Source: Vulcanimicrobiota bacterium (GTDB lineage Bacteria; Vulcanimicrobiota; SpSt-956; JAKJGF01). Taken from it: a stretch of 57,025 nt of DNA. Position numbers and translations under genes: made by a program. The stretch is from positions 1 through 57,025 of the forward strand of contig JBEHWP010000001.1 in the NCBI GenBank assembly GCA_040217665.1, given 5' to 3'. Positions 420 through 34,002 of the stretch are shown one piece after another. Within the stretch, counting starts at the first letter, position 1, and each line of letters starts with the position of its first letter. Under the pieces are notes generated by a model that made no database searches, had not been told where the DNA came from, and saw only the letters and a program-made list of their open reading frames with translations.

Positions 420-1400
420 CTAATTAAGTTCGTTGGTTTTTGTCCGTTTGCTACTACGACCCCCAATTCGAAAATAATTTCGCCAGCCTCTGATAACCGG
501 ATTTAATTTTTCGACTATCTCCTTCAGAGGCATTTGTAATTTACCTCTTAATGTAGCCTGACGTATTACATTTCTTATTCCTTTCATAACTTTCTTTGAA
601 GGCCATAAATAAGGAATAAGTTTTCCAGTAGTTTTCGAATGACTCTTAAAGAAATAGAACTCCAGAAAATCAAAACCTTCTCTTTTAGGGTCAACAATCC
701 TGGTTTTATCCGGATGCAGCGATAATTTAAGAAGTTTCATTATCTGTTCGATGATTTTCTTTGCTTCAATGGCGTTCTGCCTGGTTCTACATATGACGCA
801 AAAATCGTCGGCATATCTGATTAATTTCCCAAATTTACTGTATTTCTCTGTCCAGAACATATCCAATACGTGAAGATATATATTGGCCAATAAAGGGCTT
901 ATCACTGCACCTTGTGGAGAGAGCCAATATCAGTCTTTTTCCTTATTCTATCTTCCATTACACCTGATTTCAGCCATTTTCTTATCAGTTTCAATACTTT
1001 ACGGTCACTTATTTTAGTAGAGAGATAAGAATATCGTGGTTCATATTATCAAAGAAACTTTTTATATCCGCATCTACTACCCACCAACCATAATAAAGTG
1101 ATTGTTTAACTGCAAGAACTGCTTCCTGTGCACTGCGTTTAGGACGGAACCCATAGGAACAATCCTGAAAATTAGCTTCGAATACTGGTTCTATAACTAT
1201 CTTACACGCCTGTTGAACTATTCTATCTTTAACAGTGGTTATTCCGAGCGGTCTTTTTGTACCATCAGATTTTGGAATGTAATACCTGAGAACCGGAAGA
1301 GGTAAATATTCCCCGTTCTTCAGCTCCTTCTCAATTTCTTTCAGATACTTTTCTACACCATAGTCTATAATCTTTTCTGACGTCGAAGGATTATGTCGTT
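420..1400 (-). pseudogene. Decayed group II intron-type reverse transcriptase/maturase (frameshifted, truncated)
   Basis: The minus-strand reading needs three frames. Frame 1: ...SEKIIDYGVEKYLKEIEKELKNGEYLPLPVLRYYIPKSDGTKRPLGITTVKDRIVQQACKIVIEPVFEANFQDCSYGFRPKRSAQEAV...VVDADIKSFFDNMNHDILISLLK(stop). Frame 2: KISDRKVLKLIRKWLKSGVMEDRIRKKTDIGS. Frame 3: LSPQGAVISPLLANIYLHVLD...IRYADDFCVICRT...LNPVIRGWRNYFRIG. This gives RT blocks with the YADD motif plus the maturase X motif. There are disruptions near 1010 and 925, and the N-terminus is absent. Confidence 0.8.
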
Positions 1401-1577
1401 TTTCGGACCGGATTCTTTGTCAAATTTCTAACCGGATTTTACAATAGGTGCTGGAGGTGGAAAATACCTCAACTTTATTGCCTTTGTACTACGAAAAAAA
1501 TGATAGAACCTGACTTGTTCCCGAGATTCAAATCATTTTTCAACACAATCACAGTTTATATTCCGTTTTCATGATAA

Positions 1578-3539
1578 TTGACATGGATTATAATAGGTGA
1601 TAAACTGTATTCAGATTTTTTCAATGAATTTAGCTCCAATGATGAGAGGAAAGTAGTTATTATGTCAGAGTTAATACAAAAAATAAGTTCTTCTCTGGTT
1701 AAGAAGTTTAAAGAAATTGCAAATCCAGATGAAAAAATACATTTTTGTATTGAAGGGATCAAAGGGAATGCCTTAATAGGAACAAATAAGAAGGTTTATT
1801 CCATAACAAGCGGTTCATTTAAGGGTACACTTTGTTATTGCTATAGTTATGATAATATAGCAGATATTAAATTAATCCCCCCTCTACACGGTGATAATAT
1901 TACCTTATCTATAATCCCTCAGAAAAAAGATAATAAAGAATTAAAACAGAGATTATATTTTCAGCCTGAACAAAATAATTTACTTAAACAGGTACTTGCT
2001 AAAATATCTTCTCTCAGTAAAACCTATACATATATAGAACCTATAAAAGAGATATCCCTTCATCAAAGTTCAACTGAATTTATTGTACCTATGAAGAATG
2101 TTCTTGGAAAGTTATATGAGAAACATATAAAATCCTCTGAAAAAGTAGTTATTTGCATTTCTATAGGAGATCATCAGGGCCTTGTATGTACAAATGAACG
2201 TCTTGTCATATTTAAAATTACCGAAGATAAAATATCTAAAATAGGTATATTCCCTCTTGAAGAAATTCTGGATGTAGAATATTCCGTAGGACTTGTAACA
2301 GGATACCTGCAAATTATTACACCGAAAGTTCATGTCATAAAAAAGAAATTACGGGAACAGGAACTTATTAATATTGAAAATATTATCTCTTTTGGCAAAA
2401 AAAATTATGGCGAACTTATGGAGGATGTTTCTAAAAGATTGGAAGCACTTATTAAAAATGCAAGAAGAAAAAAAGACACCTCAAGAGAAATAAAAAATTT
2501 ATCTGCTCAGAGAGAAGAAGAAACAGTTAGAAAAGATAAAAAAAATATTTTTGAAGAAGAAATAGAAGAAATAACACTGGAATATGAAGAGGGCCCATTT
2601 CAGGATATAGAAGAAATTATTTCTAAACCGGCACAGGAAAATATGCCTCCCCTGGATGAACTGGCACAGAAACTTTCAGAAGAGATAATAGAAGAAATCA
2701 AGTCAGATGAACAATCTTTTTATTATTCCAGAGATATAGTAAAACAGATTTCTCAGGAAGTCGTTAAACATTCTTTCCCGGAACTCATATCAAGCACATT
2801 ACCTGATAATATTACTGAACTGGTAATGAAATATCTGGCCCAACGGAATGTAAAAATTATACGTACCGATGATAATTTTTTAGAAGAAACCCAGGGATTG
2901 AATGATTCTGATAATATAGAGATTGCCGAACTGGATTTTGATGAATTTTCCATAGAACCAGAAGAGACACCTGAAGTTTCTACAAAACCTGCTATTCCCG
3001 CCAGAACTGTAGAGAAAACAATAATAACTTCCTACAAAGAAGGGAAAGAAAAGAATTTCGTAAAATCCGCACAATCTATTCAGGTAAGTACAGATAAAGT
3101 AAAATCAGTAACTTCTCTGAAATCTGCCGGAAATAAAGAGGCCAAATCTGAATATAAAGGAAAGGTTTCTGTACAAAAAATTCCGGCTGTAGAAAAAAAA
3201 CTGGCAGATTTCACTGCACTTAAAAATATATCCGCCGCTCTTCTGGTAGATGGGAAATATGGAAATATAGTCTGTAAGTCTGTTGTAGAAGCTGTTAATT
3301 ATGATAAACCCTCCAAAATTGCAAGTGATATTATAAAATTCATTAAGTCTTCCAGAGAGTCTGCAAAAGGAAACTTTATACCTCAGTGGAAAACAGAATA
3401 TGAACAGGGTATAGTTTATATAGAGGAAATTAATTTGAATTATCTTCTTATGATTGTAGGAACAGAAAAAAGTAATTTTGCCACTCTCAAGATGTTTATA
3501 GAAAAGCACAAGGAAGAATTGAAAAAAGAATTAATTTAA
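1578..3539 (+). CDS. Hypothetical multidomain protein: two PH-like (bacterial PH/YokE-type) modules, an acidic low-complexity linker and a C-terminal Roadblock/LC7-like domain
   Basis: 653-aa ORF; the likelier start is ATG 1662 (MSELIQK, preceded by GAGAGGAAAG). Two similar modules: EKIHFCIEGIKGNALIGTNKKVYSI and EKVVICISIGDHQGLVCTNERLVIFKI. The middle is E/K-rich. The last ~110 aa (ISAALLVDGKYGNIVCKS...GIVYIEEINLNYLLMIVGTEKSN) have the alternating pattern of a Roadblock/MglB-type fold. Domain calls rest on pattern only. Confidence 0.5.
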   Translation: MTWIIIGDKLYSDFFNEFSSNDERKVVIMSELIQKISSSLVKKFKEIANPDEKIHFCIEGIKGNALIGTNKKVYSITSGSFKGTLCYCYSYDNIADIKLIPPLHGDNITLSIIPQKKDNKELKQRLYFQPEQNNLLKQVLAKISSLSKTYTYIEPIKEISLHQSSTEFIVPMKNVLGKLYEKHIKSSEKVVICISIGDHQGLVCTNERLVIFKITEDKISKIGIFPLEEILDVEYSVGLVTGYLQIITPKVHVIKKKLREQELINIENIISFGKKNYGELMEDVSKRLEALIKNARRKKDTSREIKNLSAQREEETVRKDKKNIFEEEIEEITLEYEEGPFQDIEEIISKPAQENMPPLDELAQKLSEEIIEEIKSDEQSFYYSRDIVKQISQEVVKHSFPELISSTLPDNITELVMKYLAQRNVKIIRTDDNFLEETQGLNDSDNIEIAELDFDEFSIEPEETPEVSTKPAIPARTVEKTIITSYKEGKEKNFVKSAQSIQVSTDKVKSVTSLKSAGNKEAKSEYKGKVSVQKIPAVEKKLADFTALKNISAALLVDGKYGNIVCKSVVEAVNYDKPSKIASDIIKFIKSSRESAKGNFIPQWKTEYEQGIVYIEEINLNYLLMIVGTEKSNFATLKMFIEKHKEELKKELI

Positions 3540-9249: not shown

Positions 9250-9463
9250 AAATCAATTTTTCCTGGCACCTATCATGACCTTACCATAGCGCACCATATA
9301 ATCTTCAGGTATTACCTGTTCTCTGATAACTGGACAAAAAATAACCATTTCCTGTTCCAATATCCAGAACATTCTTACAGACAGGCAACCAATGTTTTAT
9401 CATGAAACTATAATACCGTAAATATATATCTACCTGCAATTTAAGCTGATCATCTATAATCTA
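9250..9463 (-). pseudogene. Possible relic of a class I SAM-dependent methyltransferase
   Basis: The minus-strand frame reads ...IKHWLPVCKNVLDIGTGNGYFLSSYQRTGNT(stop). VLDIGTGNG matches SAM-binding motif I, but there is no start codon and the reading breaks after about 50 codons. Weak. Confidence 0.25.
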
Positions 9464-9577
9464 TTCGAGAGATAACCAGGTTCCGAATTTATTACTCCTT
9501 TTATGCTTCCTATATGGATAGAGCTTACAGACCATACCTGTTCAAAGATTCCTGAGCAGATACGTTACGGATAAAAA

Positions 9578-11209
9578 TCATATTTCTACAAATTGATTGT
9601 ACACACGTTTCATTATAAAAGGCAGTAATACTAGAGAATCAGTTTTTTCTTTATAAACTCTCAGTATTACCTGTTTCTCGAATTTTTTCAGTTCTTCTTT
9701 CTTTTCCTCAAGCTTTATAGCACACCGGCTTTTTTTATCTTTAATAATATTATTGACTGCTTCGGCAGACGTGTTGAGTTCAATAGAAACAGAAATCATT
9801 CCGTCCATATCTTCCCCGGCCTCTTCTGTACCATCGTTTATCATCAGAACAGGTATATTTAACTCTCTTGCCACAGTTCTCAATTTTATTACAGTTTCCA
9901 CCATGTTATCAGGGAAAATTAAAAAAGGATCTTCCACTATCATTACTATATGAGGGGTATTGAATTTATAACTGAGCTGTTTTGCTGTACTCTCTATAAA
10001 ATCTATATCAATCTTACTTCTTACATTCAGCACTTTTATCCATTGTGCATAGGATTGATATATACTTACCGCTCCGTGAAGTTGTTCCATAAAATCATCT
10101 GCTCTGGGTTCACTCTTCCATTTCTTTGATTCCAGTAAAGCTTCGTTCAATTCCCCCGTTCTGGAAAGAGATTTCAGTATAAGCTCTTCCCTGTCAAATC
10201 GTCTGCTTATATAAAAAATCACTATAGGAAGCTGTCTTGTTGAATTATAAGAAGCAATTTGATCTGCAATCTGGAGAGCAAGGATTGTTCTTTCTACGGA
10301 ATTCCCGCCTTTTATCTCAGTCAGTTTACTGTTTTGTAATCCTCCGTCCAGAAAAAGGTCGAGTGATTTAAACCCTGTAGGTACAGGAGAAAAGGTATCT
10401 GATGTCAGCCATATTAGCATATTATCCAGAACACTGTCATTCATTTCCTGATTATCTACTGTATGATGGACACTTTCTTCTACCGGTATTATTTCTTCTT
10501 TCTTTTCTAAAGGAATTTCAGATTTTTCCGGGCTTTTTTTTATTTCCCCTGTAGGTTTATCGGAGAAATAACTTATAATATCAGGTAAAATCATTGGATC
10601 ATTTATTTTTATTAATTCCAGTGTCATATCAATTGGTATAACTTTTTTACTATCATCCAGGAAAAGTGTATGACCATGTTTCATTCCTTTTCCCATAATA
10701 TCGGAATCTCCGAAAAAAGGAAGCCATGCAAATTCTCCGCATGCACCTTCGTCTGCCCTGCTCTTTTCTTCAGTAGGGTATATGTTTACGTATTCTTCAA
10801 GATTCAATTTATGAAGTAAAACATGGAAAGCTTCTCTGATAAGAGAAGCGGAAGCAGGGCTATCAAAAAATATCCACAAACGAAAACCTGTATCGGTACA
10901 CGATCTTTCTATATATGACCTTATACCGCACTCTGCAAGAGTGCGTTTGACTGAAAAGGTATCTTCCAGATTCTGTTTTTCGTTCTCTTTTTTCTCAAAT
11001 TCCATAAGAGCCCAACAACATGTACCATCTGGAAGAAAATTATAAAATCCTATTCTCTGATGACCTTTCAAATGACGAAGTAAATATCGCGGCATTTCCT
11101 GATTGGGATTTAAAATTTTAAAATGCATGGCCCTACCGCGGGCAACTCCGCCAATTCTATCAGTTCGTCCTTTGAATAATGTCAGTATATCATTTATGAG
11201 TTTATCCAT
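9578..11209 (-). CDS. Fusion of an archaeo-eukaryotic-primase (Prim-Pol)-like N-domain with a DnaB-C/RecA/KaiC-like C-domain; both catalytic signatures look degenerate
   Basis: 543-aa ORF with AAGGAG upstream of the ATG. N-terminal: LLRHLKGHQRIGFYNFLPDGTCCWALMEFEKKE...YIERSCTDTGFRLWIFFDSPASA...GEFAWLPFFG, which follows AEP motif order. C-terminal: SLDLFLDGGLQNSKLTEIKGGNSVERTILALQIADQIA...IVMIVEDPF, a RecA-fold layout in which the P-loop reads GGNSVERT instead of GxxxxGK[ST]. Confidence 0.55.
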   Translation of the reverse strand: MDKLINDILTLFKGRTDRIGGVARGRAMHFKILNPNQEMPRYLLRHLKGHQRIGFYNFLPDGTCCWALMEFEKKENEKQNLEDTFSVKRTLAECGIRSYIERSCTDTGFRLWIFFDSPASASLIREAFHVLLHKLNLEEYVNIYPTEEKSRADEGACGEFAWLPFFGDSDIMGKGMKHGHTLFLDDSKKVIPIDMTLELIKINDPMILPDIISYFSDKPTGEIKKSPEKSEIPLEKKEEIIPVEESVHHTVDNQEMNDSVLDNMLIWLTSDTFSPVPTGFKSLDLFLDGGLQNSKLTEIKGGNSVERTILALQIADQIASYNSTRQLPIVIFYISRRFDREELILKSLSRTGELNEALLESKKWKSEPRADDFMEQLHGAVSIYQSYAQWIKVLNVRSKIDIDFIESTAKQLSYKFNTPHIVMIVEDPFLIFPDNMVETVIKLRTVARELNIPVLMINDGTEEAGEDMDGMISVSIELNTSAEAVNNIIKDKKSRCAIKLEEKKEELKKFEKQVILRVYKEKTDSLVLLPFIMKRVYNQFVEI

Positions 11210-11338
11210 TCATTTAACTCCTTTACAAATATTTCGACTTTGTCATAAATATTATGTACACCTATCTGCCTTATTACCCGGTTCCTTTACACAAAAAGAG
11301 ATTGCAGACTCAAAAATTTTCTTTTCCTGAGCTTCTCT

Positions 11339-13615
11339 TTACCATGGTGCTGCAAAAATATCTGCCTCTTCATGCTGTGAAAGAGATATGGAAAGCTCTT
11401 TTAAATCAGAAGCCAGTTCTAAAACATTTGAATATCTGTCCATAGGTTCAGGTTCAAGACATTTCATTACTATTTCATCAAACCTTGCAGAAATCCTTTC
11501 GTCTATTCCTAAATCCTCTATTCTATAAGGGTTTTTCTGAGAAGGTACAAGCAATTCCTGTATATCGGCTTTACCTGTGGCTCTCCTCTGATGCATAAGC
11601 CCTACTATACCCGGATCGTCATGAATAAAAGGAGGCTGCAATGTCAATAATTCATATATAATACAACCTAGTGAATAGATATCAGCTCTGTGATCAATGG
11701 GAGGCAGTTTCCCGTCATAAGGGCTTGGATATTGTTCCGGTGCAGAATAATAGCTGGTGCCGACAAAACTTTTCGTCCTCTGATAATTTCTTCTGGAACT
11801 GGAAGACATAGAAGATACTCTGCATATACCGAAATCTGTCAATTTAACAGCCCAGTCATCAGTAATCAATATATTTTCAGGCTTTAAATCCCTGTGAACT
11901 ATCTGTTTTTCATTATTATGTACCCTCTCCAGAGCCTGACAGACCTGTGTAATAACAGAAAATATATCACCTATATTATTTACTGTCCCTTTCTGTATTT
12001 TATCTCTGAGGCTTTCTCCGTCAATATATTCCATAGCAAAAACAAATTTATCTTCTTCAAAACCACTGCCCAGTATTTCAACTATATTCGGATGAGGATA
12101 AGGTCTTGCAATAGCTTCAAGGGCACTTACTTCCTTATGGAAGAAACCGACTATCTGCTGACTGCGGCAGAGGCTGTCATGCATCTTCTTTATCGCAACC
12201 GGTCTTCCTGTACCTTTTTCTCTTCCTTTATAGACAACAGCCATTCCGCCTTCTCCTATTATATTTTCTTTCGATTCGTCAAGTTCAAAACGGGCCCAGA
12301 ATTCATTATAGGTACTTTTTATTATCTTCTTTATCGAGGCTCCTCCAAGTTTTACAAGGTTTCTCTGCCAGACAGACAAATCAGTATCACCTGTTTTTTT
12401 GAGTTTCTCCACCAGATTTTCTACTGATTGTATAAAATCTTTATTTATGCCTTTCCCGCCAAGATTTATTATTTTGCTAAAGGCATCTTTCGTTTCCTCT
12501 ATAAAACCTCTCTGAAGATATATATTACCGGCAGTAATCAGAGACTGACGACGTATTTCGTTCATGTCACTGTTGATTGTAATTTCGTCCCTTCCATCGA
12601 TACCCCATGATCTGAGAAAAGAAACTTTTTTATTTCTATCTCTTTCGTCTTCCCAGGAACTTATCATACATAAAATTTCCTTGAATTTACCAAGTGCTTT
12701 ATCAATGTCACCTTTTTGATACATAATCTTTCCAAGACAGAACTTTGCATAAATATTATTACATTTTATATCAATGTCCTCCATTATTTTCTGGGAAGCA
12801 TCTATATCTCCAAGTTCATATTTAAAGAAACCATACCTGCTTTTAAGAGCCATATTATCGGCACCTGTTGACAGACTGTGTTCAAGGAGAGAAACAGCTT
12901 TCTTGAAGAGTTTATTTTTTTCATAAAGTTTCAATAATTTTAATATATAAACTGTTTTCTCTGAAGGATCAGGAAAATTTAAATTACAGATTCTTTCAAG
13001 CATTTCAATTTCCACCATAGAGTCATGGTCGGAATTTTCCATGGCTTTCTCATATATTTTTACACTTCTGTCAAACATATTCTCATCTCTATAAAAGTCT
13101 CCTAATTTTCTGTAATAGGCCATATTACCGGAATCAATAGTTATAAGTTTAAGCATTGTACTGACAAAGCTTTTCTTTTTACCGAGCAATAACTGTATCT
13201 GGGCCAGATGATAAAGGCCTGAAGTATCTTCAGGATAATACCGAAGGGCTTTCAGGAAATGTTTCTCTGATTTTTCCAGAAGATTTTGCTCTCTGTATTT
13301 AAGGGCTATCTGTATATGACACTGCTTTAAACTGTAATCAATGGATATTCTTTCACTTTCTGCGAACTGATCTTTAATCTGTGCTATTTCCTCTTCCATT
13401 TCCTCCTGTATGCCAAGCACTTCATTGAATTTCTGTATTCTCTCCAGTTTTTCTGCCTCTTTAAGCTTTTCTTTTAATTTTTTAATTTTCTTATCTTCTA
13501 TAGATATTTTTCCTTTTTTAGCTTTATGAAGCAATATAGCCATAGTTATACCTATACTGCCTATTAATATATAAGAAAACATTATAATTTCACAGCCTTT
13601 CTTTGAAACAAACAA
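11339..13615 (-). CDS. Membrane-anchored TPR-repeat Ser/Thr protein kinase (Hanks type, kinase domain C-terminal)
   Basis: 758 aa. One N-terminal TM segment ([17 protein letters not shown]), a coiled coil and TPR-like repeats. The canonical kinase motifs are present: [32 protein letters not shown]. Confidence 0.85.
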
Positions 13616-13694
13616 CAGATATAATTCAAGAATATGCCATTAAAAATGAAAATTCCTGTACCTTTTATATGAGAATTGTGAAGAGTGAAGGGAT

Positions 13695-13749
13695 GATAAA
13701 TTATTTAGATAAACTGCCTCTACATAATGTTCATCTAAATCTTTATTTT
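13695..13749 (-). promoter_or_regulatory. Copy 1 of a ~55-nt upstream element (TTTAGATGA...GTTTATCTAAATAATTTAT), 79 nt 5' of the TPR-kinase ATG
   Basis: Plus strand: gataaattatttagataaactgcctctacataatgttcatctaaatctttatttt. It contains the inverted half-sites tttagat / atctaaa. About 85 percent identical to 15661-15715. Confidence 0.6.
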
Positions 13750-13857
13750 TGACTGGATTTTCGGGATTAAAGAATTACCGGGATTAAAGATTTCAAGTAA
13801 AGTAATTCTATTTATCATCCTGGTAATCACATAAGTCCTATAAATCCCGGTCAAAAG

Positions 13858-14052
13858 CTACTCTTTCCATGGCAATAGAATTGCTTCTGTAGGGCAAATT
13901 TTTGCACATTCTTCTTTCCTCTGACAGGCATCGGGTCTGACAACCTTTGCTTTTTCATCTTCTCCTATGGCTATTACATCATTGGGACATATAGCGACAC
14001 AGGCTTTACACCCTATACATAACTCACCATCAATCTCAGGAAATTCATTCAT
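13858..14052 (-). CDS. Small single-cluster [4Fe-4S] ferredoxin
   Basis: 64 aa with CIGCKACVAICP plus a distal C...CAKICP. The layout resembles Thermotoga/Pyrococcus-type mono-cluster ferredoxins. Confidence 0.75.
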   Translation of the reverse strand: MNEFPEIDGELCIGCKACVAICPNDVIAIGEDEKAKVVRPDACQRKEECAKICPTEAILLPWKE

Positions 14053-14135
14053 ATATATTCACCGGCCTTTTATTTAAATATATATCATATATCAGAATTA
14101 TAGGTTTTGACATAAATGCTCCGGAACCAGACATA

Positions 14136-15614
14136 TTATTTTGGTTCAAATTCTTCTTCTGTTATTAACCATTCTCCGTTTTCTCTGGTAAACTTTAATA
14201 TTTTATATCCGTTGCTGACAAATGCGCCATTAAAATACTGTTCAAACTTGACTTCCACTTCAGTATCACTTACAGAAGTAACAGTAAGATCACCTACTAT
14301 ATCTACCTGTGGTTTCCCGGCAAAGACTTTATCAGATACTTTCATATCCATCCAGTCTGTCAGATTTTTAGTTTTGGAATTGGTGAATTTCTCAGAATAA
14401 AAGTTTTTAAAGTTATCTAAATCTCCTTCCTTCCAGGCAGAAACCCAGGAGTTAACCTTTCCCTTTATTATTTCATCAGTATGTTCAGCCTGTACCGAAG
14501 GAGTTGCTGAAGGTTTATCCGGCGTTGGAGTTGCAGATGACACTGAAGGAGACGATACTGCCGTCCCACCTGAAGGGGTTTTTGCTTCTGCTACAGGAGC
14601 AGGTGTAGGTGCTATAAGCTGTGCCACCTGACGAAACGGAGTTTCACCTTCCTTAACATATACATTAGAAATCTTCCATTTATCATCTGTTTCATTTTTC
14701 CATGCTTCTATTTTCAGTGTTTCTTCTATAAAATCACAATCAAGGAATATTTCTTTTTTACCGGCTTCAACTTCTCTGGCTTCTACAGTAAAACTCCCCT
14801 GATCATGGCGGGCATTCTTTTTCAAATCATCCATTTTACTCTTCCCTATGCCGATTATTACCAGTAAGATTACTATTATAGTACTCAAAACAGTTATTAT
14901 AATTTTAGGATGATAGAAACTGAAATAAAAACCTTCATCTTCCTGTTCCTGTTTGTTTTCTTCATCCAGTTCTTCTTCTTTCACAGGTACTTTATTTTCT
15001 TTATCCTTTTTTCTTTCCCGGTTTTGCTCTACCATATCAACCAGTTTTTTCATTTTCGGTATATCATCATTGTTGTCACAGTAAATTACATATCCCTTGC
15101 TCGGATATGCTTTTTCTCCATCTTTGTCTGTTCCGAAAATAGCAAAATCCTTTGCAACTGATTCCACTATAAGTAATACATACCAGTCTGCATTAAAAAA
15201 ACTCACATGTGTGTCCTGATCGTCAGGAGAAAGTTCTACGCCCCACCCGGGATGTGAATGATACCAACCTACAATCCTGTCTTCAGGGAATTTCTCTTTT
15301 ACCTCTTCAGTCAACTTATCGAATTCTTCTTCGGAAAAGGTAAATTTTTTCTGCAGGCCCATTCTTGATACAGGAAGGATGGTTTTTATATCAAGATAGA
15401 GGAAATCATCATCTATTCTTTTATCAGAATATATATTCCCGATAAGGAGTCCACCCATTTCGTTAATTGTATCTTTCAATCCATGTTTCATAGCTTTTGC
15501 TATTGTCAGGTAATTTATAAAGATTTTATATTTCTCTTCTATAGCAGAACCTATAATTATACACCTGTTTTTAGGTGGAGTCGGTTTCTCATTTGTTGCA
15601 AGATTATCTTCCAT
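14136..15614 (-). CDS. JAMM/MPN+ metalloprotease domain, single TM helix, Pro/Thr/Ser linker and C-terminal NTF2-like (SnoaL-like) domain
   Basis: 492 aa with GGAGG upstream of the ATG. Complete JAMM signature: NEMGGLLIG (Glu) and GWYHSHPGWGVELSPDD (HxHx7Sx2D). TM segment: IIITVLSTIIVILLVIIGIG. The C-terminal VNSWVSAWKEGDLDNFKNFYSEKF...GYKILKFTRENGEWLITEE is NTF2-like by pattern. Confidence 0.7.
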   Translation of the reverse strand: MEDNLATNEKPTPPKNRCIIIGSAIEEKYKIFINYLTIAKAMKHGLKDTINEMGGLLIGNIYSDKRIDDDFLYLDIKTILPVSRMGLQKKFTFSEEEFDKLTEEVKEKFPEDRIVGWYHSHPGWGVELSPDDQDTHVSFFNADWYVLLIVESVAKDFAIFGTDKDGEKAYPSKGYVIYCDNNDDIPKMKKLVDMVEQNRERKKDKENKVPVKEEELDEENKQEQEDEGFYFSFYHPKIIITVLSTIIVILLVIIGIGKSKMDDLKKNARHDQGSFTVEAREVEAGKKEIFLDCDFIEETLKIEAWKNETDDKWKISNVYVKEGETPFRQVAQLIAPTPAPVAEAKTPSGGTAVSSPSVSSATPTPDKPSATPSVQAEHTDEIIKGKVNSWVSAWKEGDLDNFKNFYSEKFTNSKTKNLTDWMDMKVSDKVFAGKPQVDIVGDLTVTSVSDTEVEVKFEQYFNGAFVSNGYKILKFTRENGEWLITEEEFEPK

Positions 15615-15660
15615 TTAGTTACCTCCGCTGAGTACCGCAACAGATACGTCAGTGCCCGTT

Positions 15661-15715
15661 TATAAATTATTTAGATAAACTGCTTCTAATTAATTTTCAT
15701 CTAAAGCCTTATTTT
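15661..15715 (-). promoter_or_regulatory. Copy 2 of the same upstream element, 46 nt 5' of the JAMM gene ATG
   Basis: Plus strand: tataaattatttagataaactgcttctaattaattttcatctaaagccttatttt. A second shared module, ttaaaaatgaaaa(a/t)tcct(a/g)tacc, lies at 15721-15744 and 13638-13662. Confidence 0.6.
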
Positions 15716-16078
15716 ACGCTGTTAAAAATGAAAAATCCTATACCATTAAATTATTCAATCATTCAATCAGTAAACTCATTACTCACAGCTTATTCTTCGT
15801 TCGGACAATCTTTCATATTGATTGGTACCAAGGTTAAAATTATTCTCTTTAAACGAATCACGTTCCGGTAAAATATCAATATTAAGGAACGTTTAAGATT
15901 TTTTGGAATTTATGTTGAAATTATAAAGTATTTTCTTTAATAGGTCAATCAATTTTATGAACTCATTGACTGTATTTTTACAGTTAACGGGGAGAACTGT
16001 AAAATGCGGTAAATTAAATAGACATAAAAACAGTTTTTCTTTCACCGGGATTATAGATTTTTCGGAAGAGCCTGGCAG

Positions 16079-17035
16079 TTACCAGAATTTCCACCATGCT
16101 TTTTTCTCCTCTTTTCCCTTTTCCCATGTTTCAAGAAGTTGCTCTTTTTCTTCTTTCATCCTGGCCATAAACATGGCTTTCTGTTCTTCTAAAGCCTTTT
16201 CTTTTTCCTCAAGGAACCTGCCATACTGGGTCTGTATGATTTCTTCTTTTTCTCTTATTCTTTCCTGTAATTCTGTTTTGTCTCTGGAAAGGATCTTCAA
16301 ATTAGTGGCATTATCCATTAAAACTTTTTCTATTGAAGTGCCGGGTGAGTTTTTTAAATTATCCTGCAAAGTCCGGTTTTCTTCCTGTAATGTAATATTT
16401 GCTTTTTCCAGATTTTTTATTGCTTCTGAAAGAGGTGGCAGAGATTTTAAATCATCCTGAAGAATCTGATTTTCTTCTTTAAGCTTCAGGTTTTCTTCTC
16501 TGACAATATCAAGATCTTTCGCCGTTTCTAACAGAACAGGTAAAGACTTTAATTCTTTCTGAAATATTTGATTTTCTTCCTGCAGTTTCCGGTTTTCTTC
16601 AAGTAATGTTTCTAATTTTTCTTTTAAAAACTGGTTTTCATGTTCAACTCTTCCGAGCCTGTATAAAGATTGCTGTTCAACAGGCTTTACAAGCTCGGCC
16701 TGTTTGGTTGAAAAAAATTCCTCCATTACTTCTCTGATCTTTTCTGCTGTAAGCTGTTCTTCATCCTTTACAACATTCACTCTGTCAGTATTATCTTCTC
16801 TGATTTCATTATCTTTACTGACTTTATCAGTGCAAATAATATTAAAAATTCTTTCTATATCTGTTTTCTTAACTGTAAGATACTCTTTACCGTTAATCAC
16901 CTTTTTTTTACCTGAAATGGCTCCTCTTTCAATATATTTGTAAATAGTACTCTGACTCTTACCGGTAAGAATAGAAGCTTCCAGTATAGTTATGTTACTG
17001 CTGTTATTCATTATATTACTCCATAAAAATCTCAT
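16079..17035 (-). CDS. Excisionase/MerR-type HTH protein with a long coiled coil containing internal repeats
   Basis: The likely start is ATG 17011. HTH: ITILEASILTGKSQSTIYKYIERGAISGKK. This is followed by the repeated unit KL.EENQI.Q..LKSLP.L.E..K.L (see repeat 16328-16600). Confidence 0.6.
   Translation of the reverse strand: MRFLWSNIMNNSSNITILEASILTGKSQSTIYKYIERGAISGKKKVINGKEYLTVKKTDIERIFNIICTDKVSKDNEIREDNTDRVNVVKDEEQLTAEKIREVMEEFFSTKQAELVKPVEQQSLYRLGRVEHENQFLKEKLETLLEENRKLQEENQIFQKELKSLPVLLETAKDLDIVREENLKLKEENQILQDDLKSLPPLSEAIKNLEKANITLQEENRTLQDNLKNSPGTSIEKVLMDNATNLKILSRDKTELQERIREKEEIIQTQYGRFLEEKEKALEEQKAMFMARMKEEKEQLLETWEKGKEEKKAWWKFW
16328..16600 (-). repeat. In-frame tandem repeat of about 105 nt (2 full copies plus 1 partial) inside the coiled-coil gene
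   Basis: Protein-level copies are RKLQEENQIFQKELKSLPVLLETAKDLD, LKLKEENQILQDDLKSLPPLSEAIKNLE and ITLQEENRTLQDNLKNSPGTSIEKV. The nucleotide similarity is visible, e.g. ctgattttcttctttaagcttcaggttttcttc versus ttgattttcttcctgcagtttccggttttcttc. Confidence 0.7.
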
Positions 17036-32853: not shown

Positions 32854-32898
32854 GGCATTAGATAAAATTTTATCTACAGGCATTTATCTAAATAATTT
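32854..32898 (+). promoter_or_regulatory. Copy 3 of the element in gene-matched orientation, ending exactly at the radical SAM ATG; includes a perfect 18-bp palindrome
   Basis: The sequence is ggcattagataaaattttatctacaggcatttatctaaataattt followed by ATG. TAGATAAAATTTTATCTA (32859-32876) is a perfect palindrome. The 3' part, tttatctaaataatttat, is identical to copies 1 and 2. Confidence 0.55.
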
Positions 32899-34002
32899 AT
32901 GTATCAAATAAACAGTATAAAAAATAATACAGAAGAATTTATTTCATCCCTGCACCATGGTAATCCCTATAAACCATTGAGTGTAAAAATAAAACTTACA
33001 TGGAACTGTAATCTCTCCTGTGTTATGTGTAATTCTACAAGACAGATGAGAGGAACAGAACTGGGATATAAAAGAGTCGTCGGACTGGTGCAGGAACTTG
33101 CAGAAATGGGTTGCAAAAAAATACATTTTTCAGGAGGAGAACCTCTTCTGTGGGAAGGTTTATTTAATATTGCCGGGTATGCAAGAAACAGAAAACATAT
33201 AAAAGTAAATATTACAACAAACGGAACTCTCCTGAACAGGGAAATGGCAAAAAAATCAATTTACAGTCGATTTAAAACCATATCAATTTCACTTGACTCT
33301 CCTGATGAGTCAATTCATGACAGGATCAGAGGTGCAGGAAACTGGAGAAAAACCATAGAAGGGATAAAAAATCTTGTAAAAGAAAAAGAACTGGCTGAAA
33401 GTGGAACTAAAATAAGACTCAATGTTGTTGTAAGTAAATTAAACTATAAAAGCCTTCACAAACTGCCTGAAATGGCATCTTATCTGGCAATAGATTATCT
33501 ACTACTCATACCCGTAGATGATCATCTCGGTATGAATTTTAAATTAAATTATGACGAACTCCTTGAATATAATACAGAAATAGGGCCTGCCCTTGATGAA
33601 AAAGGAACTAAATATAACCTGTGGGAATGGCCTGACCAGGCTTTCCCTTTCGGAAAAACTTTTTCATCTCTTGAATTTTCTTCAAAAGGGTTGTATGCTA
33701 TGGGTATATATGAAAAAATTCCCTGTTTTGCTCCCTGGCTTCATTCTTTTATATCTCCCAGAGGGAGGGTATTTATCTGCTGTATGACAAAAGATATAGG
33801 AGTACTCGGGAAAATTAAAAAGAAAAATTTCAAGGAAATATGGGAAGGTGACCTTTATAGACAGGCCAGGCATATAATGCTCAAAACACGCTTCCCTGAA
33901 TGTTTCAGATGTGATAGCTTTTTAAAGGAAAACATACAGATATGCAGATATTTATCTCATAATGATAACAGTAATGATACAGGGTTTCTTGCGATGAAAT
34001 AA
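32899..34002 (+). CDS. Radical SAM enzyme with a Cys-containing SPASM/twitch-like C-terminal extension
   Basis: CNLSCVMCN (CxxxCxxC), GGEPLL, and a C-terminal CFAPWLHSFISPRGRVFICC...FPECFRCDSF. Confidence 0.7.
   Translation: MYQINSIKNNTEEFISSLHHGNPYKPLSVKIKLTWNCNLSCVMCNSTRQMRGTELGYKRVVGLVQELAEMGCKKIHFSGGEPLLWEGLFNIAGYARNRKHIKVNITTNGTLLNREMAKKSIYSRFKTISISLDSPDESIHDRIRGAGNWRKTIEGIKNLVKEKELAESGTKIRLNVVVSKLNYKSLHKLPEMASYLAIDYLLLIPVDDHLGMNFKLNYDELLEYNTEIGPALDEKGTKYNLWEWPDQAFPFGKTFSSLEFSSKGLYAMGIYEKIPCFAPWLHSFISPRGRVFICCMTKDIGVLGKIKKKNFKEIWEGDLYRQARHIMLKTRFPECFRCDSFLKENIQICRYLSHNDNSNDTGFLAMK

Follow-up and report, generated by a model that had tools for sequence, protein, structure and literature searches.

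What does a primase-helicase fusion do in a bacterial chromosome when the catalytic motifs of both its domains look altered? Prim-Pol-helicase fusions are the replication engines of phages and plasmids. In the window (the whole stretch of DNA analysed, 57,025 nt of a Vulcanimicrobiota contig), one gene encodes such a fusion. The first-pass annotation described it as an archaeo-eukaryotic primase (AEP) domain joined to a RecA-like domain, with both active sites inactivated. The peptides it quoted are all present, including RHLKGHQRIGFYNFLPDGTCCW (45–66), TDTGFR110LWIFFD, VNIYPTEE (141–148), GEFAWLPFFG, LDLFLDGGLQ and IVMIVED427. The features of the locus are collected in Table 1.

Table 1. Features of the fusion gene, its domains and motifs, and the kinase gene upstream
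Feature	Position (nt)	Strand	Basis or remark
AEP/Prim-Pol + linker + DnaB-like RecA-domain gene (P0001)	9578..11209	(-)	543 aa, ORF
AEP/Prim-Pol domain, aa 1–218	10556..11209	(-)	Pfam, PDB match, Foldseek; pLDDT mostly >90
Linker, aa 219–253, E/K/P/S-rich, disordered, fast-evolving	10451..10555	(-)	pLDDT <50
DnaB-like RecA-fold domain with N-terminal linker helix, aa 254–543	9581..10450	(-)	Pfam, Foldseek
Block before motif I, aa 45–66, RHLKGHQRIGFYNFLPDGTCCW, most conserved	11012..11077	(-)	Nearly invariant in ortholog alignment
Motif I, E70-F-E72	10994..11002	(-)	Aligned to catalytic D177-x-D179 of MpCAPP
Motif II region, T105-D106-T-G108-F-R110	10880..10897	(-)	Canonical S-G-x-G-x-H replaced by T-D-x-G-x-R
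Motif III region, V141-N142-I-Y-P145-T-E147-E148	10766..10789	(-)	Multiple alignments
Degenerate Walker A, G301-G-N-S-V-E306-R307-T308	10286..10309	(-)	RecA G71-K72-T73 opposite E-R-T
S335-R336-R337, invariant	10199..10207	(-)	DnaB-like relatives: S/A-L/M-E-M/Q
Walker B strand, IVMIV-E426-D427-P428	9926..9949	(-)	Asp kept, E-D-P invariant
K520-E-K522, Arg-finger position	9644..9652	(-)	Relatives: K-x-R; K522 invariant
Kinase-AEP gene spacer, 129 nt	11210..11338	(-)	AAGGAG ribosome-binding site ~9 nt before ATG
TM-TPR-Ser/Thr kinase gene, upstream partner	11339..13615	(-)	Pkinase E=2.9e-51 and TPR families (Pfam)
Operator-like element, ~54 nt, upstream of kinase gene	13695..13749	(-)	Inverted repeat

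The two domain assignments of the first-pass annotation were borne out. The N-terminal domain matched Pfam AEP-TOTE (PF22548) with 67 bits (E=2.5e-18) and the C-terminal domain matched DnaB_C with 35.5 bits (E=9e-9); the gathering cut-off is 27 bits for both families. The nearest PDB sequence was the CAPP Prim-Pol domain (7nqf/7nqd, phmmer E=8e-6), and the alignment to 7nqf placed E-F-E opposite the catalytic D-I-D and GFRLW opposite GYHIW. The AlphaFold2 model had a mean pLDDT of 89.6. In Foldseek, its AEP domain matched the CAPP Prim-Pol structures 7nqd/7p9j (TM on target 0.75–0.80, probability 1.00), and its RecA domain matched the ATPase domains of DnaB (4esv/2r6d) and G40P (3bh0) with a TM of up to 0.74. 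Both assignments are far above chance. A helix (254–269) precedes the RecA domain in the model, and the linker before it showed 24–29% identity among distant orthologs with a raised dN/dS. The order of the two domains matched tailed-phage primase-helicases along the full length in a structural alignment (uncultured Caudovirales proteins, BFVD). NCBIfam and PADLOC gave only sub-threshold PrimPol/DnaB matches to the protein and no system-level match. No PriCT or Zn-finger helper domain, as normally carried by primase-proficient Prim-Pols (PMC10345425), was found with Pfam.

The RecA-like domain gave the clearest result. Its P-loop had been read as lacking the second Gly and the Lys of the Walker A motif, and this reading is correct: the family has [E/D]-R-[TV] where all outside relatives have GK[ST]. 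Moreover, the catalytic Glu (SLEM, motif H1a) is replaced by Arg and the Arg finger by Lys, and ~20 aa of the H4 DNA-binding loop (FRGSY/FKESG), a central-channel loop, are deleted. The Asp of the Walker B strand is preserved, with D427 aligned to the Asp of DPxQ / DYLQ in relatives. GK[ST] and the catalytic Glu are kept in all of the more than 20 outside relatives compared, and the Arg finger and H4 loop likewise persist outside the family. The loss of the ATPase motifs is specific to the family of the 543-aa protein. The canonical residues are not hidden elsewhere, as there is no GK[ST] in the whole protein and the sole other D-x-D, the D-I-D of 'KIDIDF' near aa 400, lies in a RecA-domain helix and is not conserved in orthologs. 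Judged by its motifs, the RecA domain is clearly ATPase-dead, and the role of a P-loop ATPase or helicase motor would be impossible for it.

The AEP domain required a revision of the earlier argument. Upstream of motif I, the RHLKGHQRIGFYNFLPDGTCCW block is the counterpart of the HL.G...hGhY block of CAPP/TOTE AEPs in the alignment with relatives. It may correspond to the template-DNA-binding region of CAPP/PrimPol (role as described in PMC10345425). Motif I had been taken as inactivated, with E-F-E in place of D-x-D. E70 is invariant and position 72 is E or D; both positions are thus acidic and conserved. In CAPP, D177A/D179A abolishes activity (PMC8211822). E-F-E together with canonical GYH and vEvFPK was found in ~25 relatives, which are ordinary mobile-element primase-helicases with PriCT_2, DUF927 or DUF5906. 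Hence, E-x-E is normal for one clade of otherwise intact mobile-element primases and is no evidence of inactivation.

At motif II, the His to Arg substitution itself is real: D106, G108 and R110 are invariant across family orthologs, while 132 of 148 relatives carry His at this position. As a sign of inactivation it carries less weight than had been assumed. Two otherwise canonical AEPs (P0074, P0135) also have Arg, PolpTN2 is active with Gln and the conservation of this His is relaxed in PrimPol-PV1 (both PMC5862659). By itself, His to Arg would be weak evidence.

Motif III had been placed at the two Glu after the Pro. In CAPP-like AEPs, the acid sits at P-3 (E of vEiFPKQ; E260 in MpCAPP, counted from the alignment, with its role taken from PMC10345425). 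This corresponds to position 142, which is N in the query and T or K in orthologs, and no conserved acid was found at P-3, P-4 or P-5 in the alignments of the family orthologs. The register was set by a 148-sequence query-anchored alignment, by a separate, independent alignment with MAFFT L-INS-i and by pairing the query in BLASTP with a paralog from its own genome; the phmmer pair with 7nqf is two residues off register at motif III, with Pro not opposite Pro. That paralog, which is CAPP-like, has kept D-I-D, H and E-I-F-P-K-Q-D. The first-pass annotation had overlooked the loss of the motif III acid, as well as the invariant TPR-Ser/Thr kinase upstream. Y-P-T-E is invariant after the motif III position in the family. 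Since E147 and E/D148 are strictly conserved beside E70 and E/D72, a metal site could persist.

The changes specific to the family are His to Arg, SGxG to TDxG and the loss of the motif III acid (N/T/K), with the missing acid as the strongest argument that the alignments offer for inactivation. The DNA-synthesis site of the AEP domain is probably lost. The loss of polymerase activity is likely rather than certain because otherwise canonical AEPs carry Arg (P0074, P0135) and PolpTN2 works with Gln. The claim that both catalytic centres are altered therefore stands for a clearly dead RecA site and an altered AEP site, the latter not by the E-x-E argument.

The substitutions in both domains are kept in orthologs down to 45% identity. 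The dN/dS was 0.05–0.10 in both domains at a dS of 0.34–0.5, and similar for the kinase gene. The reading frame was intact in every genome, without internal stops. Conservation in orthologs had been named beforehand as the mark of a selected pseudo-enzyme, and it was found here under strong purifying selection. Because the changes hold to 45% identity and the dN/dS is 0.05–0.10, the 543-aa protein is best read as a selected pseudo-enzyme rather than a decay product, with conservation statistics limited by the number of non-redundant orthologs (only ~7). The pair of kinase and AEP-RecA genes was present in five of five genomes of the class. The family is confined to a small group of uncultured digester bacteria; the runs holding the gene were all DNA runs, which gave the habitat, and none was an RNA run. 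Such a distribution speaks for a core signalling module specific to this lineage and against a mobile defence island.

The TM-TPR-kinase gene lies directly upstream in every lineage, which is new here and is the main clue to function. In the window, in three congeners, in another genus and on the contig of the 45%-identity ortholog (L001), it is adjacent to the AEP-RecA gene and shares its strand. The incomplete upstream ORF on a further contig (L018) may be the same TPR-kinase. The partner consists of an N-terminal TM helix, a coiled coil, TPR repeats and a Hanks-type Ser/Thr kinase with complete catalytic motifs (VAIK473, HRDLKPEN574, DFG594 and SAPE624). Its true start is probably M12 at 13582, and it is predicted to be membrane-tethered and otherwise wholly cytoplasmic. 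No terminator-like hairpin was called in the spacer between the two genes. The operator-like element upstream of the kinase gene (TTTAGATAAAC-N13-GTTCATCTAAA) recurs upstream of a JAMM gene (15662–15715) with 89% identity.

Neighbours other than the kinase vary between lineages. A five-gene island (kinase, ferredoxin, JAMM and HTH among its genes) was considered and rejected: JAMM is syntenic within the genus only (L014–L016) and is missing around the family-level and 45%-identity orthologs. Radical SAM and BMC genes flank the module in L001 and L018; this link was dropped because tblastn with the L001 proteins found no homolog of either in the window. The kinase is the sole conserved partner gene. 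CSD/OB and TBP were absent among the neighbours at 4.4–15.6 kb (Pfam) and in the gene tables of the ortholog loci, and TPR occurred only fused to the kinase. Neither SNF2, nuclease, integrase, defence or mobile-element genes nor Cas families were found among the window neighbours or at ortholog loci. The kinase TPR matched the TPR of the same-genome CAPP-like protein with E=6e-4 over 37 aa, and this similarity is generic.

We consider it somewhat probable that the protein is a domesticated phage-type primase-helicase that now serves as a non-catalytic adaptor, sensor or substrate of the upstream kinase. It appears unlikely that the AEP domain has remained catalytic by means of non-canonical residues, with the RecA domain as its regulatory or oligomerisation module under kinase control. 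Metals would then sit on E70, E/D72 and E147/E148 and the triphosphate would be held by R110; products could be short primers, oligonucleotides or those of nucleotide transfer (e.g. a signalling product or protein nucleotidylation). The four acidic positions, invariant or conservatively substituted, are in line with such an enzyme, as are E-x-E in apparently active primase-helicases, the tolerance of other AEPs for Arg or Gln at the His position (PMC5862659 for Gln) and the strong constraint on the domain (dN/dS 0.05–0.08). However, N/T/K at the motif III acid position would point a Lys toward the metal A site in half of the orthologs, the Gly of the SGxG triphosphate loop is replaced by an invariant Asp, and the PriCT or Zn-finger helper normal for primase-proficient Prim-Pols (PMC10345425) is missing. 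Moreover, a sister ('cousin') family in the same phylum has independently lost other catalytic residues, which suggests that catalysis is dispensable in the whole clade. A two-gene anti-phage conflict system related to TOTE appears less likely still. Here, the pseudo-primase-helicase would be a decoy or sensor of phage replication factors or DNA, and the TPR-kinase the effector, which would phosphorylate targets of the host or the phage in the manner of abortive infection. The top Pfam family is indeed that of a TOTE conflict-system AEP, the architecture is phage-type, a TPR partner is known from TOTE and CAPP, and the kinase domain matches PADLOC defence-kinase models (mad6, PD-T4-6), though only as a generic Pkinase would. 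Patchy occurrence is typical of defence systems, whereas this pair occurs in all five class genomes with stable synteny within the genus and vertical conservation to 45% identity. Purifying selection is strong with no diversifying signal, the pair matches no PADLOC system model, and OB/CSD, TBP, SNF2, nuclease, integrase and other defence genes are absent nearby.

Two further explanations are effectively refuted. An alternative replicative primase-helicase of the lineage would fit the architecture, yet it is very improbable with the Walker A Lys, catalytic Glu, Arg finger and DNA loop all missing and a normal, separate DnaB (454 aa, E about 1e-112) in each of the genomes. That the gene once served prophage or plasmid replication and is now decaying without a function is hardly credible at all. 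Both domains are without their catalytic motifs and the ancestry is of the phage/mobile-element type; against decay, no stop interrupts the frame in any genome, the dN/dS is 0.05–0.10, the replacement residues are themselves invariant and no mobile-element genes surround the locus.

A non-enzymatic kinase partner is the most likely role because the ATPase site and probably the DNA-synthesis site are lost and the gene always lies behind a membrane-tethered kinase. According to this preferred explanation, the gene of a phage or mobile-element primase-helicase would have become a permanent chromosomal gene. The AEP domain would have kept its fold, the N-terminal block (template-DNA-binding in relatives) and the two motif I carboxylates, with the motif II His now Arg, an Asp within the triphosphate-binding loop and the motif III metal ligand gone. 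As the catalytic residues are lost while fold and carboxylates are kept, the domain most probably binds nucleic acid or nucleotide without polymerising. Comparative genomics suggests that the AEP-RecA protein works with the directly upstream TPR-Ser/Thr kinase. The TPR array of the kinase may dock it, as TPR does in the CAPP/TOTE AEP systems, and the pseudo-enzyme could be a ligand-sensing adaptor that switches the kinase, or the kinase's dedicated phospho-substrate or scaffold. It is gene order that suggests a physical contact between the two proteins and a direction of signalling. The role of sensor or scaffold, already proposed in the first-pass annotation, is likewise one that we infer.

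A distinctly improbable, more specific version is a phospho-switch in place of the ATP switch. The kinase would phosphorylate a Ser/Thr in or near the dead pocket (candidate sites are the invariant S335 and T308), and arginines would clamp the phosphate (R307, R336 and R337, the invariant arginines that replace the Walker A Lys and the catalytic Glu). The membrane-tethered Hanks kinase, not ATP, would then drive ring assembly or nucleic-acid binding of the fossil primase-helicase. If true, this would be an undescribed route that wires a replication-protein fossil into bacterial Ser/Thr signalling.

The result is a clear, selection-backed case of a fusion fixed in the host chromosome, stripped of its motor and most likely of its polymerase chemistry too, and coupled to a Ser/Thr kinase of the eukaryotic type. 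A functional pairing would represent a new pseudo-enzyme family, a new input/output module for bacterial Hanks-kinase signalling and a third, independent TPR-AEP partnership after CAPP and TOTE. The impact is kept low by the tiny size of the family, its restriction to uncultured digester bacteria and a function that is only predicted. A general caution is that AEPs should not be called 'inactive' from E-x-E or His loss alone.

In Rad51-paralog-type scaffolds (e.g. the yeast Shu complex), as would be the case in the query, the RecA fold has outlived the Walker motifs and serves as a module for structure or interaction. These scaffolds share no specific homology with the query and provide only a lead on how it may act. 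Among solved structures, the one nearest to the N-terminal domain is CAPP of Marinitoga (7nqd/7nqe/7nqf/7p9j). Both have the N-terminal LF.GR.D and HL.G..hGhY blocks, the hWIFF strand, the G..h.LP hairpin and an association with TPR. Yeast two-hybrid assays showed an interaction of the MpCAPP TPR domain with the part of the protein that comprises TPR and AEP (deltaCTD; PMC8211822). CAPP is an active primase-polymerase with D177-x-D179, H226 and E260 (the last two counted from the alignment), positions at which the query carries E-x-E, R and N. In CAPP, TPR is fused in cis, a PriCT-like CTD is present and cas genes lie alongside; the query has a DnaB-like domain instead, its TPR belongs to the kinase, a separate protein, and cas genes are absent nearby.

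The TOTE AEPs (PF22548; SNF2-fused, e.g. P0010), the top-scoring Pfam family, resemble the query in having a TPR protein partner in trans (PMC12458937, whose definition of TOTE systems was used). The match spans only profile positions 66–209 of 230, so the N-terminal Cys-rich part of TOTE is missing in the query. TOTE AEPs carry DFD, GxH, DRhFPNQD and a fused SNF2/ResIII helicase (P0010, P0013, P0016), where the query has DnaB_C. TOTE systems also have OB (CSD) and TBP components; none were found at the query loci.

The nearest full-length relative is the cousin family mentioned above (~685 aa, AEP + Cys4 + DnaB_C; L009–L013, P0021, P0024, P0031, P0042), which matches both domains with 22–24% identity. 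Cousins and query are both chromosomal, their AEP sites are degenerate, and in both the P-T-E-D signature follows motif III. Unlike the query, the cousins have an intact Walker A, the remaining ATPase motifs and a Cys4 module. They have lost other AEP residues (the first motif I acid; His to A/K/E) and adjoin tuf-nusG-rplKA, with no kinase neighbour.

The domain order of the query is that of the phage and mobile-element Prim-Pol-DnaB/RepA primase-helicases (PrimPol-PV1/PrimQH-type); such PrimPol-DnaB/RepA fusions occur on mobile elements (PMC5862659). The nearest relatives of the C-terminal domain are phage-type Toprim- or AEP-DnaB-like proteins (P0035, P0099, P0160). The phage and mobile-element proteins keep GK[ST], the catalytic Glu, K-x-R, the H4 loop and usually a Zn or PriCT module. 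In the query, by contrast, all of these features are lost, and the gene is chromosomal, core-like and linked to a kinase.

The proteins P0001 (543 aa) and its orthologs combine an archaeo-eukaryotic primase (AEP) domain with a DnaB-like RecA domain. In Pfam, AEP-TOTE (PF22548) matched aa 43–191 of P0001 (67 bits, cut-off 27, E=2.5e-18) and DnaB_C (PF03796) matched aa 276–457 (35.5 bits, cut-off 27, E=9e-9); the PrimPol/CAPP and DnaB matches in NCBIfam and PADLOC were all sub-threshold. The AlphaFold2 model (input alignment of 90 sequences, mean pLDDT 89.6) showed two folded domains (aa 1–218 and 254–543) joined by a disordered linker (219–253). In Foldseek, the N-domain resembled CAPP's Prim-Pol domain (7nqd/7p9j; TM on target 0.75–0.80), and the C-domain with the preceding linker helix resembled the ATPase domain of DnaB and G40P (4esv, 2r6d, 3bh0; TM ≤0.74). 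The domain assignment of the first-pass annotation was thus confirmed, and every peptide it quoted was found in P0001 at its position. The best viral-model matches were full-length: tailed-phage proteins of 600–690 aa annotated as PrimPol/DnaB-like primase-helicases. The architecture is therefore that of phage and mobile-element primase-helicases, as described for mobile-element PrimPols (PMC5862659).

The RecA domain was compared with every DnaB-like relative recovered in an exhaustive search. All outside relatives carried G-K-[TS] and the catalytic-Glu motif [SA]-x-E-[MQ]. The family reads [E/D]-R-[T/V] at Walker A, where E306-R307-T308 of P0001 falls on G71-K72-T73 of E. coli RecA, and an invariant S335-R336-R337 at the catalytic-Glu motif. 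The arginine-finger motif K-x-R is K520-E-K522 in P0001, the H3 'S-[QDS]' position reads N-D, and ~20 residues corresponding to the FRGSY/FKESG loop of the nearest relatives (motif H4) are absent. In DnaB-type helicases, this motif makes contact with ssDNA inside the central channel. The only ATPase determinant kept is the Walker B Asp (D427, in an invariant E-D-P). With a side chain in place of the last Gly and Arg in place of Lys, a P-loop cannot bind and hydrolyse nucleotide in the normal way, so the alignments essentially show that ATPase and helicase function were lost. The inactivated P-loop had been proposed before; the additional losses agree with it. One ortholog, P0008 (704 aa, on a 2.9-kb contig), has a ~160-aa insertion, predicted to be helical, between AEP and RecA; its P-loop is G-E-N-P-I-D-N-I, with the Arg gone too, and S-R-R and E-D-P are kept.

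For the AEP domain, the first-pass annotation had taken E-F-E in place of D-x-D as a sign of inactivation. In the PDB alignment, E70-F-E72 was placed on D-I-D of MpCAPP, the CRISPR-associated Prim-Pol of Marinitoga, and GFR110LWIFFD on GYHIWIFFD. D177 and D179 of MpCAPP are experimentally validated metal ligands (PMC8211822). Among 148 AEP relatives, 29 had Glu at position 70 and 26 had it at position 72, and ~25 proteins outside the family combined E-F-E with canonical G-Y-H and v-E-v-F-P-K. As these are ordinary mobile-element primase-helicases (with PriCT_2, DUF927 or DUF5906), E-x-E is, by sequence comparison, characteristic of a clade rather than inactivating. The motif II His, kept in 132 of the 148 relatives, is Arg (R110) in the family. 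This change stood as family-specific, but not as proof of inactivation on its own: P0074 (with PriCT_1) and P0135 also have Arg here (GWRVWLFF) and are otherwise canonical (D-L-D, vEvFPKQD), and PolpTN2 is active with Gln at this position (PMC5862659). The exchange is therefore suggestive only; in P0074 and P0135, Arg is of independent origin, and an active enzyme may tolerate it.

Two other positions are stronger evidence for an altered AEP site than E-x-E or His-to-Arg. The triphosphate loop S-G-x-G reads T-D106-x-G in the family, with D106 invariant. The motif III acid is the E of v-E-i-F-P-K-Q in CAPP-like AEPs and the D of D-R-h-F-P-N-Q-D in TOTE AEPs. In MpCAPP it is E260 (counted from the PDB alignment, offset 109), whose contacts are metal A and the initiating nucleotide's 2'-OH (PMC10345425). 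In the family this position is N, T or K, and none of three alignments (query-anchored, independent MAFFT L-INS-i and the BLASTP pair with the same-genome paralog) showed a conserved acid at P-3, P-4 or P-5. The CAPP-like proteins of the same genome (AEP-TOTE E about 1e-47 to 1e-49) have fully canonical motifs; the C404 paralog keeps D-I-D, G-R-H and E-I-F-P-K-Q-D. A compositional habit of the organism therefore does not account for the changes in P0001. Directly upstream of the C404 copy is a small nucleotidyltransferase-like ORF.

The P0001 gene follows a TPR-Ser/Thr kinase gene (see table). The kinase combines an N-terminal TM helix with a coiled coil, TPR repeats and a kinase domain of the Hanks type in which no catalytic motif is missing. 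Its listed TTG start (13615) is probably too far upstream, M12 (nt 13582) being the probable start; the orthologs start at the Met opening the TM helix. In the 129-nt spacer to P0001, the Shine-Dalgarno sequence is good and no terminator was called. A TPR-kinase was directly upstream of the ortholog in three congeneric genomes, a second genus (64% identity) and the metagenomic contig L001 (45%); L018, the other 45%-identity contig, is outside this count, its upstream ORF being cut by the contig end. Kinase identity was 64–67% where partner identity was 45–64%. The remaining flanking genes varied by lineage (JAMM/ferredoxin/M48, hydrogenase-type or radical SAM/BMC/NifU), and no integrase, phage or defence genes flanked the pair. 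The window holds no homolog of the radical SAM or BMC protein of the 45% lineage. The JAB/MPN+ gene is syntenic with the pair only inside the genus; its product is fused to a Cds6_C/NTF2-like domain via a TM helix and a P/T/S/A-rich linker. A ~54-nt element lies upstream of both the kinase and the JAMM/JAB gene and holds the inverted repeat TTTAGATAAAC-N13-GTTCATCTAAA. It resembles the operator of a dimeric regulator, suggesting that the two genes are co-regulated in this genus.

Coordinates of the features discussed
Feature	Sequence	Position	Strand	Remark
P0001 gene, 543 aa	window	9578–11209	-	ORF
TPR-kinase gene, 758 aa	window	11339–13615	-	directly precedes P0001 gene, same strand
JAB/MPN+ protease	window	14136–15614	-	
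~54-nt element	window	13695–13749; 15662–15715		89% identity between copies
~54-nt element, partial third copy	window	32883–32900		
CAPP-like TPR + AEP + CTD paralog	L024 (contig C404 of the window's genome, G000)	886–2838		
CAPP-like TPR-AEP-CTD protein	contig C136 of G000	9264–9905		
Cousin gene	L019 (G013)	9474–11534		
Cousin gene	L020 (G034)	9982–12027		
Cousin gene	L021 (G022)	9522–11624		
1176-aa protein, C-terminal Shedu SduA_C nuclease domain	L019 (G013)	12716–16246	-	two genes downstream of cousin
Convergent radical SAM (Fer4_12), BMC-domain, aminotransferase, NifU genes	L001	11853–15925		downstream of module
As preceding row	L018	2985–4970		downstream of module

The full-length family had only ~7 non-redundant members among 5.8 billion clustered proteins (1.84 billion representatives), and the runs holding the sequence came from anaerobic digesters, sludge and biogas reactors. 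The kinase-AEP pair was present in 5/5 species genomes, which is the whole GTDB class. The first-pass annotation had named conservation among orthologs as the point separating a selected pseudo-enzyme from decay. The substitutions were conserved across members of 93–44% identity, with E70, D106, G108, R110, Y-P-T-E, S-R-R, E-D-P and K522 invariant. Between congeners (Nei-Gojobori, dS unsaturated at 0.34–0.5), dN/dS was 0.05–0.08 for the AEP domain, 0.07–0.10 for the RecA domain, 0.11–0.23 for the linker and 0.07–0.15 for the kinase. No frame disruption of the P0001 gene was found in any genome carrying orthologs. These values, the intact frames and the invariant unusual residues argue against a decaying relic, which is extremely improbable; judged from its sequences, the family is solidly placed under selection. 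An alternative replicative helicase is hardly more probable: the ATPase determinants are gone, and each of the five class genomes also has a normal 454-aa DnaB.

The AEP domain probably no longer polymerises. E70, E/D72, E147 and E/D148 may form a residual metal site, and an AEP domain with residual non-canonical chemistry is unlikely, if the least improbable of the alternatives. Slightly less likely is a TOTE-like defence module; in TOTE systems the TPR protein is encoded in trans (PMC12458937), and the neighbourhood of the pair is free of defence genes. Our preferred reading, a pseudo-enzyme working with the kinase, builds on the established fold, lost ATPase determinants, altered AEP site, purifying selection and kinase adjacency. 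The kinase is active-looking, membrane-tethered and fully cytoplasmic, and the adjacency of its gene to that of P0001 is obligate. Its TPR array would dock the AEP-RecA protein, given the TOTE precedent and that of MpCAPP, whose TPR interacts with the TPR-AEP portion (deltaCTD) in yeast two-hybrid (PMC8211822). Either the pseudo-enzyme would control the kinase as an adaptor that binds nucleic acid or a nucleotide, or it would serve the kinase as dedicated substrate or scaffold. Candidate phospho- or phosphate-binding sites are its disordered S/T/P-rich linker and the dead pocket with its arginine lining. The most conserved block of P0001, aa 37–66 (QE.PRYL.RH.KGHQR.G.YN.L.DGTC.W), would fall within the template-DNA-binding region of CAPP and PrimPol (PMC10345425), which suggests that nucleic-acid binding was retained.

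The nearest full-length relatives of P0001 were cousins of ~685 aa (AEP, Cys4 and DnaB_C) from other families of the phylum. Their Walker A (GKT) and other ATPase motifs are intact, and their AEP losses differ from those of P0001: the first acid of motif I is missing (F-[DE]-E) and His is A/K/E, except in P0021, which keeps DFD and His. The cousin gene adjoins tuf-nusG-rplK-rplA divergently in two genera, its genomes also have a normal DnaB (~450 aa), and it is apparently a primase-helicase-like gene, uncharacterised and fixed in the chromosome. In the simplest scenario, an ancestor of the phylum would have acquired a mobile-element primase-helicase as a fixed chromosomal gene. AEP catalysis would then have become dispensable and eroded differently per branch; in the window's class, the motor would have been dismantled too and the gene tied to the TPR-kinase.

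The searchable literature yielded no account of an AEP-DnaB_C protein that is doubly degenerate and kinase-linked. The case for a selected pseudo-enzyme with a new kinase partnership is solid and its function putative; the very small family holds its significance down. TOTE identity of the pair was rejected, as OB, TBP and SNF2, features of TOTE systems, are missing at the locus. CAPP identity of P0001 was rejected as well, as cas genes and PriCT are missing. At the fold level, P0001 is both AEP and DnaB_C; it lacks AEP motifs II and III and the Walker A, catalytic Glu, Arg finger and H4 loop of SF4 helicases. Hence, P0001 should be labelled AEP-derived and DnaB-derived, and neither primase nor helicase.
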